This document shows positions 9,213 through 60,658 of a stretch of DNA of 64,000 nucleotides, in pieces (position 1 is the first letter of the stretch; each line of letters starts with the position of its first letter). Under the pieces are notes generated by a model. The model made no database searches and was not told where the DNA came from. It saw nothing but the letters and a program-made list of their open reading frames with translations. The stretch lies in the NCBI RefSeq assembly GCF_018350175.1, contig NC_058382.1:8680001-8744000 (forward strand), given 5' to 3'. The stretch comes from Felis catus. Lineage: Eukaryota. A program made the translations under genes and the position numbers.

Positions 9213-9352
9213 NNNNNNNNNNNNNNNNNNNNNNNNNNNNNNNNNNNNNNNNNNNNNNNNNNNNNNNNNNNNNNNNNNNNNNNNNNNNNNNNNNNNNNNN
9301 NNNNNNNNNNNNNNNNNNNNNNNNNNNNNNNNNNNNNNNNNNNNNNNNNNNN
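9213..9352. other. Assembly gap (140 N) covering the KCNA7 start codon
   Basis: Run of N inside a GC-rich CpG island; coding sequence resumes at (F)[11 protein letters not shown]. Confidence 0.99.
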
Positions 9353-14036: not shown

Positions 14037-15394
14037 CAGTTTGGAAACCCCCGATTTAACCCAACCACCTTTTTATACAGAGCGATGGAAGAAAGTACAG
14101 ATTATTGTGGGCAGGGTTTGATAAAGATAGAAAATAATAGAATGTTTAGGTAGTCACTTCTCTCTGAGACGGAGAGAAAGACACGTTTGGAGACAGAACT
14201 GGAGAACAGACCTCCTCACAGTGACAGACGCAGGGCGGAGTCCAGGACCCAGGACAGAGACCCAAAGAGGCGAAAGCCCATGCAGAGAGGAGCCAAGACT
14301 CGGAGAGAGGACACCCAGGGGGAGGAGGGAGAGCAGACAGAAGGAGGGCAGTGACCTGGGAGGGGGTCAGAGGCCGGGGTGTGTGTGTGTGTGTGTGTGT
14401 GTGTCGGTGGGGGGCGGGGGTAGGGAAGGGATCCATAGAAGCTGGAAGGCAACCACGGAGGAAGGGCCAGATATCCAGAGGGAGGGGCACAGAGAGTGTT
14501 TTACTTTTCTTTGAAAACTCACCTGTATTACTCCATCAGAGGCTGGAAGTTACTTAGAGTCTCTCTGGTAGGGGGTGGGATATGTTGGGTGCTTAAGGAA
14601 GAGGTGGAGAAGCCGGGAGAGGTCATGGAGGTGACCGGAGGGGACATTCGAAGGCTGGGAAGTGCCCCTCCCCCCCCCCCAATAAACAACTGTAGGCGCC
14701 TTCTATGTTGCCTTGGCTAGGCTGGGGAAAAGGAGGGAACACCCTAATCCGGGGACACCCTTCCTGCCACCTTGCCATGTTATATTTAGGCCGGGGAGGG
14801 GTATGGGATGACCCCCCCCCCCCCAGATGGGCATCAGCTTTCCTCCTGAAATAGCTCCCGGGGAGGGGTGAAGGGCTCTGCCGGTCCCAGGACTCCGTCT
14901 GACCTCAGTCTGTCTTAGGGTCTCTCTCTTTTCAACGGGGTCTCCGTCCCCCTTCTGGGATTCTGTCCTCTTCCCTCTCTGGGTCTTCTCTCTCTGGGTT
15001 TCTGTCCCCCCTTTCTCTCTGTTTATGTGCCCTTCCCATGTCTCCCTTTGTCCCTCACTATTCATTTTCTTTCTCTGGGCAGAGGTCATCATCGTGTTCC
15101 CAAGTCATACCCTTGGCTGTCTCTGTGCCCTAGAATACCTTGAATTTCTCTTATCTGAGCTCAGGACAGACCCTCTCCCCAGTCCCCACCCAGGAAATTC
15201 CAGCAGACAGGACTCTGTGGGAGAGCTCCCCCATATCCACTGTCTCCCTGGGCCTCGGGCCTTATCGCTGCCCAAGTCCAGCTGGTTAATGTCTAGCCTG
15301 GAGCTCCTGGGAAAGTGGGGATGAGAGCAGAGGGGGGGAATCTGCCCAGGGATTGACACTTAATTGGCAGCACAAGGCAAGGGAATCTCAGGCC

Positions 15395-15720
15395 CAGACT
15401 CCTGGCTCTAAGGAAGGAGGGAGCTGCTGGTCCGGAGCCTCGGGTCTGCGGAGGGAGGGGGCTGGGGGTGAGGACTCCTGGGTCTGAGGGAGGAGCGCCT
15501 TGGGCGTCCCGACTCCTGGGCCTGAGGGAGGAGGGGCTGGGGACCTGAATCCCGGGTCTGACGGAGAGGGGGCTGGGGGTCAGGGCTCCTGGCTCCGCGG
15601 GAGGAGGGGGCTGGGGGCCGGGACTCCTGGGTCTGAGGGAGGAGGGGGCTGGGGGGGGGGTCCCGGCTGCCGGGGCTGAGGGAGAAGGGGGCTGGCGCCT
15701 GGCCTCCCGGGGCTGAGGCG
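15395..15720 (+). repeat. MSR1-like 36-38 bp G-rich minisatellite cluster upstream of NTF4
   Basis: Tandem units of GGACTCCTGGGTCTGAGGGAGGAGGGGCTGGGGG; further decayed units at about 16190-16450. Confidence 0.8.
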
Positions 15721-25218: not shown

Positions 25219-41149
<15,931 letters not shown>

Positions 41150-41940: not shown

Positions 41941-44900
41941 ATGCCTCTAAGCCGCACTTTGTCCATGTCCTCACTGCCAGGACTGGAGGATTGGGAGGAT
42001 GAATTCGACCTGGAGAATACAGTGCTCTTCGAGGTGGCCTGGGAGGTGGCCAACAAGGGTGAGCACGCCAGGCGATGGGTCCTGGACCAGGAGGGCAGTC
42101 GGGGATGGGGGCGCGAAACTCTAGAGTCCTAGAGGACGGAGTTACTTGGCATGATACTCTTGGATTCTGGGCAAGGAACCTATGACTCCTGTGTCCTTGG
42201 GGAGGGCCGGGGTAAGTCTCCTGTACCCTGGCGGGGTGGGGATGGGTCGCCTGACTGTGAAGATGAAAGGAAGCTGGAAGTCCAATTGCTGGGTCCTAGG
42301 GAAGAGGGGGCCAAAATGAATGATTCCTAGGTCCCGGAGGGAGGCTTCCCAGAGACCAGAGACCTGGGTCCTGAACCGGGAAGGAGATGGGGGGTTGGCA
42401 CTTTCTAGTGCAAAACTAGGGAAGTGGCTGGGTTTCAGACCTGTGGCCCTGGGGGAAGAGTCTGGGGATATAAACTCTGGATCTGGGAGAGAGCCAACAG
42501 GGAGATAGGATGCATGAGTCGTGGTGGCAGAATCTGGGGGCTGGCCACTTGCGAGTAAAGATGGGAAGGGCCGCAGACTCTAATTCTTAGATCTTAGGGT
42601 GGGAGAGAGTTGGTCTGAATGCCTAGACTCTGAAGGAGCCGAGGGTGTGAGCTCTGTTTCTAGGAGTACAGAAGCCTGCGGCCTGAGACACATGCGTACT
42701 GGAATGAGGGAAGGCTGGGAAGTCCTAAGTTGGTCAGGGGCTGGGCCCTAGGATGGGAGTGGCTGGGGACCTAGATTTCTGCGTCCCAGGCTCTGAAGGT
42801 CCTAAAGTTCTGGGTTTGGAAAACCAGCTGGGGTTTTGCTTTGCTGAGTCTTGGGAGAGAATGGGGCTGAGTCTCACCCCATGGCAAGCAGCCCTCGAAC
42901 TGGGAGCCATGTATCCCCAGGGCCCAGGCTCCAGTAGGTAAGGAGGCTGAGAGCCCAGACTTCTGGGTCTGGAGTGGAGTTATGGGCAGAGCGGGGCCCT
43001 GCACGTGTGTTCTCAGTTGGGGAGAGGAAACTGGGGGACAGGTCAGCAGAGTCCCTGGGGGCAAGGAATGACAATTCAGGCTTCTCTTGGGCAGCTGTGG
43101 GAAGCTGAATCGGGCTATGGAGAGAGATTCTCCCCTACCGTGACCTAGAGCCTGACTGAGATTATAAACCCAGCTCCCAGAAGCTGGGAACTCAGGGACC
43201 TGAGTCCTGCTGATCCTTGCCAGCTTCTGTCATCCTTGGGACCCCGGCCCCTAATTCCCTCAGACCCAGGAGCCCGAGTCCCTAGCCCTTTCATGTCTCA
43301 GACTCCGAAGTTTAGCCTGAGCCCCTTTCTCCCCCTGAGTCCCAACCCCAGCCCCATTCTCCCTTAGACCCAGGAGTACTGCCCTGGAACTCCTATCCCA
43401 TCATCTCTCTGACTCAGAAGTGTGGGCTCTCAGCCCCCTCCTCCTTCTAAGCCAGAGGTGTGGGGCCCCAGTACCTCCCATGGCCCCCTACCCTGCCCCA
43501 GGTCCCAGACCCGTGGACCTCGGCTGGGGCCTGCCCTCACGCACTTGGGCCCACAGTGGGCGGCATCTACACGGTGCTACAGACGAAGGCGAAAGTGACA
43601 GGGGATGAATGGGGTGACAACTACTACCTGGTGGGACCGTACACGGAGCAGGGCGTGAGGACCCAGGTGGAACTGCTCGAGCCCCCAACCCCAGCCCTGA
43701 AGAGGACGTTGGACTCCATGAACAGCAAGGGCTGCAAGGTGGGACATGGCCTGGCCGAGGGGAGGGGAGGTGGGTGCCCAGAGTCAGGGTGGGAGCGGCA
43801 GGTGGAGAAGGGACGGCGGGGAGAGGGTGGGTAGCCCCACGGGGAGAGGGAGGCATGGACAGAAACATGGGATGAGCCAGAACTTTCCCAGATAGACACA
43901 GAGGAGGTAAGATTGACAGACAGACAGACGCAGGACCCCATGAAGTGGGTGGGTGAACCCCAAGCTGAAGACATTGGTGAACGGACAGACCGACAGCAGG
44001 TGCATAAGAAAGACTGAGAGATGGCTCCCAGAGGCCAAGATCCTCAGACCCACAGAGAGAAAAAGAGCGAGACGGAAAGACAGACAGCCAGGTGGAACCC
44101 GGGGGGAGATGGGCTTGGGGTGAGGCAGGAGTGCCAGAGTGGGGGTTCTGGAGCCTGAAGTTCAAAATCACCTTCTCCACTTCCTGCCTGTGTGACCTTG
44201 GCTAATAAACCTACTAATAGCACCTACCTTGTTCGTTTTGGGGGAAAGGATTAATTGTTAGTTAATAAAGTCCTCAGCCCGGTTCCTGGCCTCAGTTAGT
44301 ACTGTGTATGAGCTCTTGTGACCACGGCCATCGTCATCATCGTTATCATAAACAGCCAAGCCGGCAGTGAGGTGGACAGGCCGACCAAGGGAGAGAGATG
44401 GATGGAGAGAGATTGAGTGTTCCAAAAGGTGGCGATCGCCCCAGGGGCAACAGCAATAGAGAGAGAGGCAGCCTGAGATTTCCAGGAGAAGGAACTAGGA
44501 GGGAGAGGAGATAGAGTACCGATGGAGGGAAGAGAGACAGGGGGCAGAGTTTCAGAGGAGCAGACCCGGGACTTAAAGATAGGAAGGGAGAGTCCCAGAG
44601 CCCCGGCTGAGGACTGACGGATGAGCACTGAGAGGCGGCTGCCTCCGGCGGAAAAGGCCATGATGTAGCAGGGTGGAAGGACAGACAGGTCTGGGAGGAA
44701 GAAGTACAGTGGTTCCTTCATTCATTCACAGCCTCTAGTCTGGGGTGGGGTCTGGAGTCCAGAGAGGCCGGGGACCATGTCCCTAAGGAACCCTAGATCG
44801 GCCCAGCCCTCCCCCATGGCAGCTGCTCCCCACGTGCTGGGGGCCTAAGAATAGCGCCCCCCCCCCAGCAAAAGGGCAGACGACAGCTGGGAGGGGGAGG

Positions 44901-47900
44901 GGTATCAGAGTCAGGCTCCCCAGGCCGGGCAAAACCAGGTCCGGGAGGCGCAGGACTGCTTGCCGCCCGCACAGGGCTGTGGCAGCTGGCCCAGAACCTA
45001 GGCCATCATCTCAGGAGGAAAGCAGCCGCCCGGAGAAATGTGGCAGCAAGGTTTAGAAACATGGCAGCGGGGCAGACAGCAGCTGGTGTTAGAAAGGTAG
45101 CTGCAGAGTCCAAAGGGTAGAGGAAGGAGACAGCAGGTGACAAATTTATAGTGAAAGCATCGGAAGCAAGGCAGCGGGCGCGGAAGAATGTGGCAATGAG
45201 AACAGTAAAAGAAGCATCCAGTGGGAGGAATTAGCAGCAGAAGGAAGAAATAACGGGAGAAGGCGACAGGCGGGTTGGCAAGACGGAAGTGGCAGGAAAC
45301 ACAGAAACAAGGCAGCACGTTGGAGAAATGCTAAGGGCGGGAAAGCAAGGCAGCGGGGGACACAGAGACAGGACCGTGTGACATTCATGGTTATAGGTAA
45401 GAGAAAGGAGGCAGTGGGTTGGGAACCAGGGTAGCGGTTATAGAAAGGAAGCAAGGTTTTCAGTTAGCAGTAATCGCTCCTCTAATAAACCTCATTGGCT
45501 ACGATACCGCCACTGCGCAAAGCTAGAAAGGAAGCGAGGCACAGGGAAAATGTAACAGCGATGGACAAAGAGTGTGGTGGGAATAACTAGCAGCACGTGG
45601 AGAAATACGGCAGCGGGGGAGAAATTAGCAGCAGGTACCGAAACAGGGTGGAAGAACTGAGGCTTTAAGCCCCGACTGCTGCCTGCGGGTGGGCGAGCCA
45701 CCGAGGCTGAGCCCAGGGAAGTGTGGCCAAAAGCCTGAGTCTTCCTGTGGGCCCCCCCAGGTGTATTTCGGACGCTGGCTGATCGAGGGGGGCCCCCTGG
45801 TGGTGCTCCTGGACGTGGGGGCCTCAGCCTGGGCCCTGGAGCGCTGGAAGGGGGAGCTCTGGGACACCTGCAACATCGGGGTGCCTTGGTACGACCGTGA
45901 GGCCAACGACGCTGTCCTTTTTGGCTTCCTCACCACCTGGTTCCTGGGTGAGGTAGGCCCCATTGCTGGTCGCCATGTCACTCCTGACCCGGGCCCCAAC
46001 CTAGGATGGCCGTTAGTCCCTGCCAGAGGGGGCGGGGTAGGAAGGGGTGGCCGGCCGGGGGCCTTGGGGTGGCTGGCTTCTCCCAAGGCATTCTGGGATT
46101 GTAGGTCCTTTTCCAAGCCCTAGCTCTGACCTTTGGGAACACAGACACCCAGGGGCCCAGAGGCTCAAACTCCCAACCCCAGCTTCATTCATTCTAATTT
46201 TCTCAGTAGAGAAATTTTGAACTGTTAGCTTTGGGGGGTGCTGGCCGGGCTAGAGGGCTTGCACCAGGACATTCTGGGAGTTGTAGTTCTGTAGTCTGAT
46301 AGTGGCTGGACTTAGCTCTCAGAGGGGGCCCTGGACGGTTGGGGGGTCTCCAGCCTATATGAGAACCAGGGATCCTGGTTCTGACCCCCTTTTAGGTTTT
46401 AAAAGGCTGAAGAAACTTCACATCTCCTGCCCCAGGGAAACCAGTTTACGAATGGGCCAGTCGTAGGGCATTCTGGGAGTTGTAGTCCTTTAGTCAGTAT
46501 TGGATGCAGCTCCACTCTTGATTGAGACAAAAGGCTCTCCAGGAATTGCGTCCGGGACTTGGGGACACTACAACTTCAGACCTTCCACTTCAGCCCTGCT
46601 GGCACTTAGAAGGTGGGGCCAACCTCTCCACCGCCCCCGGCTCCCATCAGCCTTGAAGGATGGGGTCAGCTGGCCTGGCGACCCGGAGATGTACAGTTCC
46701 TTGTTCTAGGGGAATTGCAGTGGGCTACCATCCACTCTGTGCAAGAATGACGCTAGATTTACCTCTCCCCTGCTTCCCTGTCCACCTTGGGGATTGTTGG
46801 TTGTCCGCACAACACACGTGGAGACACAGTGGCCCTCTTCCTGTTGCCCCATAGTTCCTGGCCCAGAACGAGGAGAAGCCACACGTGGTTGCACACTTCC
46901 ACGAGTGGTTGGCGGGCATTGGCCTCTGCCTGTGCCGGGCCCGGCGGCTGCCCGTGGCCACAATCTTCACCACCCACGCCACACTGCTGGGACGCTACCT
47001 GTGTGCCGGTGCCGTGGACTTCTATAACAACCTGGAGAATGTGAGCCGGGAACGTGTGGCAGATGGGGGCTGTGAGTGGTTCGGGACAGCCCAAAGCTGT
47101 CCGGGAAGCCCAGGGGCGGGGGGATCAAGCTTCCTCTTCTCCCGTGACCCAGGGGTCCAAGTCCTCCACCCCCTCCTCCCTCTGACAAAGGAGTTCAGCT
47201 TCCAACCCCAGCCACCTCCGGGACCCCGGAGTCTGGGCTGCCTGAGTCTTCTCCCCAGTTCTTCTAACCTGACTGCCCTCCCTTCCCACCCAGTTCAATG
47301 TGGACAAGGAAGCAGGGGAGAGGCAAATCTATCACCGCTACTGCATGGAGCGGGCAGCGGCCCACTGCGCTCATATCTTTACTACTGTGTCCCAGATTAC
47401 TGCCATCGAGGCTCAGCACCTGCTCAAGAGGAAACCAGGTAAGGAATAGGCTGGGGTCCCTAGACATGAATGAGGCAGTCTGTGCTCAGGCCGATACTTA
47501 GCTGGTTTTTTTTAACTGTAGAGAGCAAAGAACTACACCCCCCAGCCAGCCCTAAGTTGATGACCTGAATAGGGAGCTGCCTGGTTATACGCCCTAGAGG
47601 CTAATGGGAGGTGTAGTTCCTTTGACATTCATTTCAAAATGGTAAAGTTACCTTATCGGCTAATGTAGTTACTGGTCTTCTGAAAGGGAATGGAGTTTCA
47701 CTGGGTTTTGATTTTGAGAAGAGTGGTGTTGGAATCCGTTATTCTTTTTTTTTTTTTTTTTTTTTAAGTTATTTATTTTGAGAGAGAAAGAGTGAGAGAG
47801 CATGGACAGGGGGAGGGACAGAGAGAGAGAGAATCCCAAGCAGAGCCCGACGCGGGGCTCGATCCCATGAACCGTGAGATCATGACATGAACCCAAACCA

Positions 47901-50900
47901 AGTTGGATGCTCAACCGACTGAGCCACCCAGACACCCCTGGAATCAGTTATTCTTTTCGGGTTATAGCACCCATTCTCAATGGGTGTATTGTGAGAACTA
48001 CAATTCCCAGGAGGCCTTTGGCTAGCCGGCTCCTTCTACTCCTGGAGCTGATGGTGGTTATAATTTTTCATTGATGTATTTTAATTTCAAGGAGGATAGG
48101 AAATGATCGGGACCCTAAAAGAGGCTTGAAGGTTGAGGGTATATTCTGGGAGAAGCAGGATGGGGATGTTTAAATCATCCCCAGTATAGGGTGGGATAGG
48201 GGAAACAAAAGAACTACAACTCCCAGAAGCCCCAAGGTAGTTCATTTCCCTGTGTGGTTAGCCATTTGCAGGGGCTGCTGGGAGTTGTGGTCGTGCTTGT
48301 GAACATAAGCAAGTGACTTGGGGCAAGAAGGCCTCTGAGTGGCAGGGCAGCGGGGCCACCAAGGGAGCTTCTAAAACTAAGAGATTGTGACAGGAAAGGA
48401 GTCTTTCCTTTGTTTATTCATTCAACCACACTGACGCGTATGAATAGATGAAGATATGAAACATGGACCTTCTCCCCACAAATCCCAGATATCGTGACCC
48501 CCAATGGACTGAATGTGAAGAAGTTCTCTGCCATGCATGAGTTCCAGAACCTCCATGCTCAGAGCAAGGCTCGAATCCAGGAGTTTGTGCGGGGCCATTT
48601 TTATGGGTACGTGGACCAGGTACCTAGGTCTTGGGAGAGGAAGGGGTTGGGAACCCAACTCATGAGTGTAAGAGATGGGATAGCTGGGGGCTCAGCCTCT
48701 TCCATTCCTGAGCACCAGAACAATGGTGGAGTATTCAAGTATTGATCCCCATCTAGGGAGAAGAGAACTTCAACTCCCAGGAGCTCCCATGATGCCTCTG
48801 TACTGCCTAAGACGCTCTTTGCCCCTGTAGCTTCTGGGGTTTGTAGTTTCAAGGCCAGGGCTAGCGGGTCCCCACCCTTGGCTTCACCAAGGTGGCTTCA
48901 CCACCATGCCTTATGGCTTTTTTAGGCACCTGGACTTCAACTTGGACAAGACCTTGTATTTCTTTATCGCCGGCCGCTACGAGTTCTCTAACAAGGGGGC
49001 CGATGTCTTCCTAGAGGCCTTGGCCCGGCTCAACTATCTACTCAGAGTAAGGCCTGGGCTTTGAGAAGACAAAAAGAGGAAAAGGAAATCCGCACATAAC
49101 TGGGGAGGGCGGGGGCGGGAAGTAGGGAAACCCCGTGTGTGAAGGGAAAGTGTAGAGACCCAGAAAGAAGACCAGAGTCCCAGTGGGGATGATGACTCTA
49201 ATTCTCCTTGACCGGAAGGAGCATGGCAGGGCCATAGTGGTCTTGATGGGTGGAAAAGGGTAGGTGGCTTCAGCCTTCTCGCGGGTGATCCTGACCCCCT
49301 CCCCCCACCCCACGCCTTTTCCTCTGCCCAGGTGAACGGCAGTGAGCAGACAGTGGTCGCCTTCTTCATCATGCCGGCTCGGACCAACAATTTCAACGTG
49401 GAAACCCTCAAAGGCCAAGCTGTGCGCAAGCAGCTTTGGTCAGCAGCCCTCGGCCCAGGATCCCTGCCATTCCCGCTCCCAGCCATGCCCTTCGGGAGGC
49501 TCAGTTTTGTTATCTGGAACACGAGCGGTTTGCCCCCCAAAAACTCGTAGTGAAGTCACTTGCTTAAGACGCCTCTAGGTCAGGGGCAGTAAGGAGTCGC
49601 ACACAGGACAAGTGTGACCGTACAACCAGGGCCCTGACATCAAACTGGCGAGGTCCCACTTGGGCCACTGACCCTTGGTGGCTTTGTGATAATTTCCTCA
49701 TCTGCAAGAGCCATGCATTAGCCATCAGATAGTCACTGAGCACCTACCGTGGACCAGGCGCTGTTCCAGGCCCTGGGGACGCAGCTGTAAATGAGGACGA
49801 TAAAATCCCTGCCCTCACCGAGCTCCCATTCTAGAGAGTTCTATAGAAAGTGCTCTGGGGTGCCTGGTTGGCTCAGTTAGAGCATGTGGCTCTTGGTCTT
49901 GGGGTTGTAAGTTCGAGCCCCGTGTTGGGTGTAGAGACGACCGCTTAAAAATAGACTCTTTAAGACAACAACAACAACAAAAAGAAAGTGCTCTGACAAG
50001 AAAATAAAGCAGGACTGGAATGCGAGACAGGACATGGAATGGACAGGCCACACTGAGAAAGTTGCCATGGGGTAGAGACCAGTAGAAGAAATGAGGGAGG
50101 GAGCCCTGTGTGTATCTGGGGAATAGCATTTCAGGCAGAGGAACACAGATGCAAAGGCCCTGAGGTATGTCTGAGAAACCACAGGGAGACCAGCGCGGCT
50201 GGAGCAGGGCGCTTAAGGGAGATGGGGTAGAAAATGAGGCCAGAGCTATGAGAAGATTAGGATTAGAGGAATGTCATCGAGGCTGCAGGGTGTCACTAGT
50301 TGCTAGCTTCACTTGTGCACATAAAATTTCCTCTCTCGGAACATCGTTCTCCCTTTTTATAACATGGGGCTTAGCATGGCCACCACCAGGACTAGTGCAC
50401 GTCCTAATAATAGCTGACATTTCTGGAAGGTTTGCTGTGTGCCAGGCACTGTGCGTTGTTTGTCGTGACTTCATCAAGTTTTCCCTGCAGACCTCTGAGG
50501 TCGGTTCTATTTTTATCCCCGTCTGAGAGATGAGTCACCAAAGTCAGAGAGGGAAGGCCACCTGTCCCCCGCCACACAGCTGATGAGGGGCACAGGGGAT
50601 TCGAGCCTTTCAGGGCCTGTCTCCCAGGTCCCCGTCCTCCAGCTCCAAGTCCCCAGGGCCTCTCCGCCCAGACCTCAGTGTAGCAGCTGACAATAAATGG
50701 CAGGTGGCATATATGTGATGCTGTGTCTCTGCCCCTTCTAGGGATACGGCCAACACCGTGAAAGAGAAGTTCGGAAGGAAGCTTTATGAGTCCTTGCTGG
50801 TGTGAGTGTCCCTCCCCCAGCCCCGCATCCTCCTGGGCCCTGACTCCACGGATCACCCATTCCCAGATGCATACCCTGTCACCTTGCAGGGGGAGCCTCC

Positions 50901-53900
50901 CGGACATGAACAAGATGCTGGACAAGGAGGACTTCACTATGATGAAGAGAGCTATATTTGCCACGCAGGTACGGTCTGGGGCCCCGAACAGAGACATGGC
51001 GATGCCCAGCACCCGCCCCGGGGGCAGCTTGCTGTCTTAGCTCTGACCCCAGAGATTGCTGGGGGCTCCGCGTCACCGGCACCCTTATCAGGGAATCAAT
51101 TGATTTTTTTTAAGGCTTATTTATTTTTGAGAGAGAGAGAGAGAGAGAGAGAGAGGAAGACAGAGCGGGGGAGGGGGAGGGGCAGAGAGAGAGGGAGACA
51201 GAATCCGAAGCAGGCTCCAGGCTCTGAGCTGTCAGCCCAGAGCCCGACTACACTGGGCTGGAACCCACCAGCTGTTAAGATCGTGACCTGAGCTGAAGTT
51301 GGATGCTTAACGGACTGAGCCCCCCCCCCGCCCCCCCCCCCCCGAGGCGCCCCCCCCCCCAGTGACTTATTCTGCTACAGGGGCTGCTAGGAGTTGTACT
51401 TTTTTTTTTTAATTTGTAATTTCGTTGAGCCACCGGGGTCAAAAGATGAAAGAGAACTTTAGGAAGTCAACAAAGCCCACAGGAGGAGAATTACAAGCCC
51501 CCGCTGTCCCTGGGTCTTGCTGCTGACTAGTTTCATACTCATTAGAGCCAGAAGGTTTTAGCTAAAACACTAGCCGTTACCTGAAGAGCATTGAAAACTC
51601 TCAGCAGCTGCTGTTTTTCTTATCCCATAGGCCGTGTGTCTTAGTCCCCAGACATTCCTGGCAGTTGTAGCTTCTTTAGATTCCGGAGGTTAATGGAATT
51701 CGGTGGATGGGAAACCTTAGAAGAATGTGGCAATAACAAAATGAGGACTACAAGTCCCAGCAGCCCCTGCTTCAGGCATGCTTCCCTTGCCCCAGAGGCT
51801 CCTGGGAGGGAGAGTTCTTTGATTCTCTGGGGTCAGGAATCTTTGGTACCTGTGGTCAGGGTGGGTGAGCCACTTCCCGGCGAATGGAAACCTAGGTACC
51901 CACGCTGCACAAATGAGGTGTGATGTGCTTTGGGCCAAACTACAATTTCCTTTTTTCTTTTTTTAAGTTTATGTATTTATTTTGAGAGAGAGAGAGGGAG
52001 AGAGGGGATCCCAAGCAGGCCCCGCGCTTCCTGCACGGAGCCTGACATGGGGCTCGAAGCCAGAAGCCGTGAGATCATAATAAAGAGCCAAAATAAAGAG
52101 ATGACTGAGCCACGCTGTGACCCCAGATTACAATTTCTAATAGTCCCTATGGCAGTCAGCCTCACTGAGGATGTGTATGCATTGCCACGGGGCTGCTGGG
52201 AGTTGTAGTTTCCTGAGCCCCTGGAGCTGACTGAAGGCGAGTAGAACTTTTAATGAGATGGAAGAGTTACAAATAACTACATATCCCAGCAGCCCGTGGG
52301 ATTTCCTAGCTCTCGCCCCTCCAGTCACTCTTGGGAATTGTGGTTTCTCTGGGCCTTGGGTGGGAGCGGAAGTGGAGGGAATTACAGGATGGAGAGTAAA
52401 GGGAACTTGGAAAGAAGGCAAGACAGGCTTTTCATAAGAGAACTACAACTTCCAGCAGCCCCTGAAGCTTGCTGCCATATTGACCAAGTCTCTGCCCCCC
52501 ATTGACTTGGGGGAATTTTAGTTCCTTTGGGTTTCTTTGATGATGGAGCCCAGAGTACAGAACCCAATAACTACAACTCCCGGTCGTCAGGGGAGGCAGG
52601 TTAATGCTGGCTTTGCCTCAAAGACAAATGGGAATTGTAGTTTCTTTTCAGCTCATGGTGTGTTTTTGTTTAGTTGGTTATTTTTTATGTTTATTTATTT
52701 TTGAGAGAGAGGGAGGGCTGTCTGGCTGTCAGCCCAGAACCCGATATGGGGCTTGAACCCATGAACCGTGAGATCATGACCTGAGCCGAAGTCGGACACT
52801 TAACCGACTGAGTCACCCAGGTGCCCCTCAGCTCATGGTGTTCAAACAGAAAAGTGAGCCTTTACAGAGAGAGCCAAGGAGGATATCTATGACTCCTCTT
52901 TTTTTTTTTTTTTAAGTTTATTTAGTTATTTTGAGAGAGAGAGTGAGAGCGCAAGCAAGGGAGGGCCAGAGAGAGAGAATCCCAAGCAGGCTCTGCACTG
53001 ACAGTGGAGACCCAACTCGGGGCTCGAACTCACGAACCAACTGTGAGCTCATGACCGGAGCCGAAATCGAGAGTCGGCCATTCCACCTACTGAGCCCCCC
53101 AGGCGCCCCAGATATCTACAGCTTCTAATCTCTTGGGCTTGTGTCCCCACAACCTGGTGGGAATTGTGACCTCCTCCCGGGTCAGCGTGGCTCACAGGGA
53201 ATGAAGGAGCCCTCTGTCCCTTCTCTGACCCCCATCCCTCTTGTGGCCCCTGCAGCGACAGTCTTTCCCCCCTGTGTGCACCCACAATATGCTGGACGAC
53301 TCCTCGGATCCTATCCTGACCACCATCCGTCGAATCGGACTCTTCAATAGTAGTGCTGACAGGGTCAAGGTGAGGGCAATGGCCAGGCTGGGTCAAGCAT
53401 GGAGGGGTGGGGGGTGGAGGTAGGGGGAGCTGGGCCTCACGTCCCCCGTCTCCCCTGGTTTATTAAGGGATCGCTATGTTTAGAAAGGGCCTTAGCACTT
53501 TAAGCGGACAGACTTGGATTCAGTGCTTTGTCCTACCGCTGACTTGTGTGACTTTAGACAGGCTTTTCGCCCTCTCTGGGCCCCTCTGGGATCCCAGGGA
53601 GTTTGGGCTGAGCTCTTCTTTTTCACTGCTAGGTGATTTTCCACCCAGAGTTCCTCTCCTCCACGAGCCCCCTGCTCCCCGTGGATTATGAGGAATTTGT
53701 CCGTGGCTGCCACCTGGGGGTCTTCCCCTCCTACTATGAGCCTTGGGGCTACACGCCGGGTGAGTGCAGCATGGTGGTCGGCTCCTGGTCAGACGGGGCA
53801 CCAACCCCGGGCACGGCACTTGCCCGCTCTGTGCCCCAGGCTCGCCTTTGCAAAACCGGGACGATGGCCACAGTCTGTTGGCCTGCAGCATGTGTTTCTG

Positions 53901-59306: not shown

Positions 59307-60658
<1,352 letters not shown>

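Follow-up and report, generated by a model that had tools for sequence, protein, structure and literature searches.

Paired SBS2-like sites in the GYS1 introns

We analyzed a recurring inverted-repeat module in the introns of the glycogen synthase gene GYS1 of the cat (Felis catus), within a 64,000-nucleotide window of contig NC_058382.1 (assembly GCF_018350175.1, positions 8,680,001 to 8,744,000 of the forward strand). We take the genes of this window, from their translations rather than from a database lookup, to be GYS1, RUVBL2, and FTL. GYS1 lies on the plus strand, with its start codon at window position 41941 and exons 3-12, delimited by hand, within 45762-53759. The ferritin light chain gene (FTL) lies on the minus strand, where an Rfam scan placed an iron-response element (RF00037, 60539-60573), as expected for the locus. 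The same genes are neighbors in the mouse Ronin tables of chromatin interaction analysis by paired-end tag sequencing (ChIA-PET) in PMC10329844 (here and below, papers are cited for the text passages and tables available to us).

Each module consists of two arms of ~25-29 nt facing each other, and each arm is laid out as ACTACA, two variable bases, TCCCA, and an SBS tail, so that the ACTACA ends are outermost. By this layout, each arm is a predicted SBS2/M4/Ronin site of ZNF143 and THAP11 (Ronin). SBS2, a motif of ZNF143, is 25 bp long and carries an ACTACAN extension (PMC3627581), M4 is defined in PMC5006282, the Ronin-binding motif (RBM) of THAP11 in PMC10329844, and a ZNF143 footprint or motif of 29 bases in 10.1101/2024.05.13.594008. 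The arm profile was informative out to an offset of ~22-25, consistent with such an extended 25-29-nt motif. Spans run from the initial A of ACTACA in the forward arm through the final T of TGTAGT in the reverse arm. We scored the arms with a position weight matrix built from core matches of the window's own sites (leave-one-out scores of 14-36 bits). The following pairs and single arms were found (scores are given for the forward and the reverse arm):

46085-46106, unpaired weaker arm, GYS1 intron 3
46266-46287, minus strand, strong SBS2/RBM arm left unpaired, intron 3; 31 bits, no convergent candidate scores above background
46415-46486, decayed pair, span 72, intron 3; 2 and 31 bits, forward arm near background (p 0.023)
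47532-47617, convergent SBS2/RBM pair, span 86, intron 5; 24 and 28 bits
47997-48064, convergent pair, span 68, intron 5; 31 and 14 bits, weak reverse arm
48213-48291, convergent pair, span 79, intron 5; 37 and 29 bits
48767-48847, convergent pair, span 81, intron 6; 31 and 27 bits
51379-51400, minus strand, unpaired strong arm; 30 bits, adjoins the end of a short interspersed element (SINE)
51490 (start), plus strand, unpaired forward arm; 16 bits
51591-51671, decayed pair, span 81, intron 10; 0.8 and 20 bits, forward arm near background (p 0.035)
51747-51815, convergent pair, span 69, intron 10; 32 and 16 bits
51939-51949, plus strand, duplicates the 5' part of the forward arm at 52127; the 11-nt near-identical copies flank a SINE-like stretch
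52127-52209, convergent pair, span 83, intron 10; 13 and 36 bits
52276-52344, convergent pair, span 69, intron 10; 29 and 22 bits
52442-52522, convergent pair, span 81, intron 10; 34 and 11 bits
52570-52641, convergent pair, span 72, intron 10; 23 and 22 bits
53115-53170, marginal decayed pair, span 56, intron 10; 3.5 and 8 bits
59880-59950, convergent pair, span 71, FTL intron 2; starts 22 nt past the donor

The spans fall into two classes, 68-72 and 79-86 nt, and the modules lie 48-100 nt apart in places. Tandem Repeats Finder reported no array across them save a 1.9-copy row at 51816-51860. A sequence-only reading of the same DNA had named seven of these modules, all correctly placed to within 1 nt, but it had overlooked 47997-48064, 51747-51815, and the FTL pair. 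The three decayed pairs that it listed held up only in part, as the weak arms at 46415 and 51591 reach just the top 2-4% of background and 53115-53170 is marginal. Several arms are also more degenerate than the consensus it gave: exact matches in the window number 13 for M4 and 5 for RBM, all but one M4 lying within the GYS1 introns. The arms share a pairwise identity of 0.61-0.67, while the outer flanks are at shuffle level and the spacers of the short class are not above it. Sequence is thus retained in the arms but not in the spacers or flanks. The array lies 4-11 kb beyond the start codon, in intronic and CpG-poor sequence (observed/expected 0.26-0.31).

Orientation and spacing of the arms

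The window contains 19 strong matrix sites, of which 18 fall within 46287-52641 and one at 59950. With a cutoff of at least 15 bits we counted 20 sites, while ten sequences simulated with an order-4 Markov model had 0-2 apiece. At a cutoff of at least 9.7 bits there were 24, ten of them on the plus strand, and nine of these ten had a convergent partner 60-90 nt downstream, a pairing window that was chosen with knowledge of the range given in the sequence-only reading. Nine convergent pairs arose with a frequency of 1e-5 when strands were shuffled and in 0 of 50,000 redraws of the positions inside the same intron blocks. The recurring convergent module described in the sequence-only reading was thus confirmed. 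Arms are paired in GYS1 introns 3, 5, 6, and 10, and this paired arrangement is a real feature of these introns.

The same redraws bear on a simpler explanation, in which the arms are independent single ZNF143 sites in a motif-rich stretch and their pairing is an accident of density. Four arms are indeed unpaired (46106, 46287, 51400, and 51490), divergent neighbors at 60-90 nt were seen three times, and, according to PMC3627581, peaks with several sites are frequent and show stronger binding whatever their geometry. However, redrawing sites inside the same blocks never gave nine pairs, and an independent human sample, described below, shows the same orientation with a sharp mode of the span. 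We therefore regard this explanation as very improbable.

Convergent pairs in human ZNF143 peaks

For comparison, we used Table S4 of PMC3627581, which gives sequences and FIMO calls for 3122 ZNF143 peaks from human, all located at most 2 kb from a transcription start site (TSS); our sample comprised 97 distinct rows, in which spans were counted by hand with an error of ~1 nt. The FTL row holds a ZNF143 peak present in all four human cell lines; its two SBS2 sites are convergent and align with 59880-59950. In both species the first arm starts 22 nt past the donor, and the span is 82 nt in human (by hand count) and 71 nt in cat. Thus, the FTL pair has been shown to be ZNF143-bound in human. No GYS1 row was found in this TSS-limited table, of which all index files but one were searched, and the human GYS1 introns fall outside it.

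In chr19:47.55-50.98 Mb we examined 42 consecutive peaks. Fifteen carried at least two FIMO SBS2 calls, and 11 of these 15 were convergent, with spans of 82 (TMEM160), 82 (TMEM143), 82 (CA11), 81 (MAMSTR), 81 and 84 (IZUMO1), 77 (NUCB1), 82 (FTL), 81 (LIN7B), 82 (RCN3), and 69 (SCAF1). Eight of the 11 spans measured 81-82 nt, a concentration in one 2-nt bin that was not reached in 200,000 uniform draws, and seven of the 11 pairs were separated from their nearest TSS by over 300 nt. In the cat window, three of the nine strong modules fell into the human-defined bin of 81-83 nt (p 0.049).

The controls were of two kinds: 34 peaks outside chr19 that contain one exact word of the reverse arm (covering 44 of 47 places), and a run of 14 consecutive peaks on chr11. 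Among these 48, 27 were multi-site, and convergent pairs at 65-90 nt occurred in two (SOLH 84 and TMEM115 75); CHMP4B (82) counts as a third only if an arm called as SBS1 is allowed, and two further pairs were convergent at 46 and 59. The difference between chr19 (11 of 15) and the controls (2 of 27; Fisher p 2e-5) serves as description only, since the two sets of rows were selected differently and the region was picked after part of it had been seen. A census of the reverse-arm word in eight chr19 peaks found a span of 81 in three (C19orf20, SYT5, and the already counted IZUMO1) and spans of 59 and 62 in two.

Pairs and Ronin occupancy in mouse

Two of the human pairs were found at a nearly identical span in mouse: Car11 at 81 compared to 82, with spacers that by eye have diverged, and Tmem143 at 82 in both species, with a one-base deletion in one arm. 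In the ChIA-PET tables of PMC10329844, four Ronin peaks in the mouse Gys1 gene body carry 3, 1, 9, and 2 motifs. The nine-motif peak (chr7:52697978-52705808) has an intensity of 3100, which looks like a ceiling, and 8 interactions, as compared to an intensity of 2510 and one motif for the Gys1 promoter peak. Thus, a cluster of intronic motifs exists in mouse as well and is occupied by Ronin at kilobase resolution. Upon Ronin knockout, Gys1 counts fell from 2802/2922/3247 to 2385/2110/2059 (log2 ~-0.46, p 3.8e-7; PMC10329844).

Interpretation of the modules

Conservation of the arms, a largely free spacer, and a span at 81-82 nt are together the signature expected of two bound proteins that meet. 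The best explanation of the modules is a protein-binding DNA element rather than an RNA structure, with 81-82 nt as its favored span and another class at ~70 nt. They probably represent a spacing-constrained convergent pair of predicted ZNF143/THAP11 sites, arrayed in the GYS1 introns, and selection is likely to maintain the span, the two sites being read jointly. Among the alternatives raised in the sequence-only reading, a paired-site grammar for a ZNF143 complex is thus the best supported, both by the pairing statistics and by the human and mouse chromatin immunoprecipitation (ChIP) tables.

Several observations weigh against this interpretation. In the mouse syntenic stretch a FIMO-called pair was present in only one of 16 rows (two with Tmem143), and this scarcity of intact pairs limits how strong a constraint on spacing can be. 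At mouse Nucb1 and Izumo1 the partner arm has decayed and ZFP143 is still bound; the pair is therefore not needed for binding. The nine-motif Gys1 peak is 7.8 kb wide, its table is silent on motif pairing, and the drop of Gys1 in the knockout could act via the promoter motif. In human, the last 14 peaks (chr19:50.17-50.98 Mb) contained no pair. Classes ~11 nt apart and the FTL spans of 82 in human and 71 in cat are suggestive of helical phasing; however, a Rayleigh test of the window spans for a 10.5-bp period gave p 0.03-0.17, and once the main mode was removed the remaining spans showed no 10.5-bp phase (mean cosine 0.08). Moreover, nucleosomes are expected to hinder C2H2 arrays (10.1101/240598).

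The modules might instead have been selected as hairpins of the GYS1 pre-mRNA, or as DNA cruciforms, that act on splicing or processing. On the sense strand, folding gave z < -4 for four of the 12 GYS1 modules; three modules are less than 100 nt away from a splice site, and the FTL pair begins 22 nt past its donor. The low folding z of these four follows, however, from the inversion of the motif itself, and none of the comparisons across modules indicated that partners have been fitted to each other. Arm identity within modules (194 of 396) equaled that with permuted partners (195.1, p 0.58), mismatches on the transcribed strand were split evenly between G-U (36) and A-C (36), and the modules folded no better with their own halves than with swapped ones (p 0.68). 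In an alignment of ten modules, paired cells amounted to 72.9% compared to 72.7% after shuffling and the covariation score to 0.166 compared to 0.177, while only one of 12 consensus pairs had changed on both sides. An Rfam scan of the window gave five matches, none of which overlapped a module. With every covariation test across modules failing, the hairpin proposal of the sequence-only reading is largely refuted, and we give it next to no credence.

More serious, but still unlikely, is the proposal that the modules descend from an ancient short inverted-repeat element with ~81 nt between arm ends, either a nonautonomous DNA transposon or a locally duplicated unit, whose span was simply inherited while selection kept single arms as ZNF143/THAP11 sites. 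A sharp length mode and the regional concentration on 19q13.3 agree with such an origin, as do the frequent decay of partner arms in mouse and the descent of THAP11 from a P-element (transposase-derived) ancestor. Two further features favor it and at the same time count against the paired-site interpretation: all 12 GYS1 modules share a polarity, in that their reverse arms are extended by TGGGG and resemble each other more (0.39) than the forward arms do (0.28; p 0.025, post hoc), and long-class spacers past offset 28 show an identity of 0.498 compared to 0.470 in shuffled ones (p 0.04). The duplicate at 51939 can be read as a target-site duplication made by a SINE that inserted into the 52127 arm; since the SINE sits inside this arm, the module would predate it, which also fits an old element. 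On the other hand, a search at 13 modules found no target-site duplication above chance (best direct repeats of 4-7 nt, within the random range), the outer flanks are at shuffle level and contain no sequence resembling a terminal repeat, and local alignment related only two of 36 spacer pairs at p<0.05. Spacers so diverged should hold insertions and deletions, yet eight of 11 human spans are 81-82. Short palindromic elements of a similar kind may occur in frogs and lizards; our literature search did not confirm them and, among the matches listed, gave no link of the motif to such an element. A recent MITE (miniature inverted-repeat transposable element) is not supported, given the absent target-site duplications and the unrelated flanks. 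The relic suggested in the sequence-only reading therefore fails as a recent insertion, whereas the weak similarity of long-class spacers and the shared polarity make an old, locally spread common ancestor possible. Such an element may also be the origin of the modules under the paired-site interpretation.

A model for reading the paired sites

If the sites are read in pairs, the likeliest reader is a THAP11 dimer, because Ronin loops DNA via its dimerization domain, THAP coiled coils dimerize, and THAP11 is recruited via the ACTACA end. The looping by Ronin was observed in vitro and required this domain, while Zfp143 did not loop DNA (PMC10329844, 2023), and dimerization of THAP proteins via coiled coils is reported in PMC13631171. 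A coiled-coil dimer of THAP11 together with HCFC1 might bridge the outer ACTACA ends, with ZNF143 on the inner TCCCA parts or competing for them; we consider this arrangement plausible, although somewhat short of an even chance.

A loop of 80 bp would be costly on naked DNA, whereas on a nucleosome sites ~80 bp apart would fall on adjacent gyres. The nucleosome could thus supply the needed bend, with sites placed symmetrically about the dyad sitting side by side, and an inverted pair centered on the dyad would offer the two-fold symmetry needed by a homodimer. An ~80-bp gyre-spanning binding mode has been described for T-box factors (10.1101/240598). This step is doubtful: the 68-72 class does not fit a gyre-spanning model, and a profile of AT dinucleotides in six modules revealed nothing interpretable about nucleosome placement. 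As zinc-finger arrays are expected to be excluded from wrapped DNA, binding of ZNF143 would represent an alternative state.

At the level of the gene, an array of 10-12 pairs could turn the GYS1 introns into a high-avidity platform for THAP11/ZNF143, which would contact nearby housekeeping promoters and support GYS1 expression. This, too, is a tentative proposal, to which we assign a little less than even odds. Quite unlikely is a more far-reaching version, in which the pair would be the favored substrate of THAP11 and the THAP11 dimer, like its P-element transposase ancestor, would synapse inverted ends across the two gyres of a single nucleosome. The modules would then be fossil transposon ends; their family would have moved locally within the ancestral 19q13.3 region and would persist in abundance among amphibians and squamates, and the hyperconserved M4 promoter motif itself would descend from a transposon end.

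Other features of the window

The window is rich in a tRNA-derived SINE, presumably of the carnivore type. SINE insertions at 51939-52137 and 52880-53130 have flanking duplications that include a forward arm, clearly at 51939/52127 and more weakly at 52882/53113. A weak convergent pair in the RUVBL2 region (33071-33149, span 79, 14 and 3.5 bits) may be due to chance, because the null yields one to three such pairs per 64 kb.

GYS1 intron 2 holds a 5' fragment of U4 snRNA on the minus strand (45448-45524, Rfam RF00015, 48.9 bits) with direct-repeat flanks, which is an ordinary truncated retropseudogene. Across 44700-45760 the same intron contains strand-biased degenerate repeats (GGCAG 12 times compared to CTGCC once, AGAAA 11 times compared to TTTCT 0) and is 63% purine. 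The Rfam scan also detected a potassium-channel RNA editing signal (RF00485, 11280-11393, plus strand), expected for the locus. GC-rich minisatellites with a 38-nt unit lie at 15392-15655 and 40830-41093, with a faint copy near 47160-47250; they resemble what we take to be the chr19q13-associated MSR1 repeat, so that the paired sites are accompanied by another repeat of restricted regional distribution. An assembly gap of 140 N is located at 9213-9352, far from the modules.

Significance and relation to known systems

M4/SBS2 is among the most conserved promoter motifs of mammals, and both the sharing of sites by ZNF143 and THAP11 and their looping are disputed; two 2024 preprints, in the passages available, assign ZNF143 no part in looping, while a 2023 paper reports looping by Ronin (PMC10329844). 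Hubs rich in the motif were already known, as were the motif and its factors; what seems to be new is the convergent pair of fixed span and its array in the GYS1 introns. The convergent fixed-span SBS2 pair, the 19q13.3 concentration, and the GYS1 array are undescribed in the accessible parts of PMC3627581, PMC5006282, PMC13631171, PMC10329844, PMC13734088, and PMC13032593 and in the text passages of 10.1101/2024.03.08.583864, 10.1101/2024.05.13.594008, and 10.1101/2023.09.27.559875. A literature search, in part with broad terms, likewise returned no such element among the matches listed. A fixed orientation with a span of 81-82 nt offers a defined substrate on which to study bridging by THAP11, competition by ZNF143, and dependence on nucleosomes. 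A further implication is that GYS1 contains a regulatory array away from promoters and that 19q13.3 has a regional motif grammar, both of which promoter-centered analyses would miss.

The arms share their motif with the SBS2/M4/Ronin sites of ZNF143-THAP11-HCFC1 (PMC3627581, PMC5006282, and PMC10329844). However, those sites are strongly TSS-proximal (PMC10329844), whereas the arms described here are intronic and occur as convergent pairs with a preferred span. The customary setting in a CpG island near the TSS is absent here; it is the usual context of the motif but not a strict requirement. Peaks with several copies and motif-rich hub promoters, such as Gsk3a with 11 RBMs, are known as well (PMC3627581 and PMC10329844). 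Like the GYS1 modules, long terminal repeats (LTRs) of the MLT1J family are an off-promoter source of SBS2, borne by a repeat (PMC3627581), but the modules share no flanking sequence with each other, and in places they lie 48-100 nt apart.

With MITEs and transposon ends bound by a domesticated transposase domain, the modules have in common the short inverted arms, a short spacer, and the transposase-derived THAP11. They differ in lacking target-site duplications and a terminal repeat past the arms, and in having spacers near shuffle level. A convergent spacing of 37 bp has been reported for CTCF and ZNF143 (PMC7782510). The periodic spacing of ~60/70/80 bp between SP, NRF1, and BANP motifs involves the same distance classes as those found here and has been read as cooperation on the same face of the helix (PMC13734088); in the parts of that paper available to us it concerns promoters rather than intronic arrays, and ZNF143 is not reported. 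Another parallel in length is provided by the gyre-spanning T-box sites, whose half-sites are likewise ~80 bp apart (79-86 in the long class here and 81-82 in human), although this binding mode was demonstrated in vitro for T and TBX2 only, and the passages available mention neither THAP11 nor ZNF143 (10.1101/240598).

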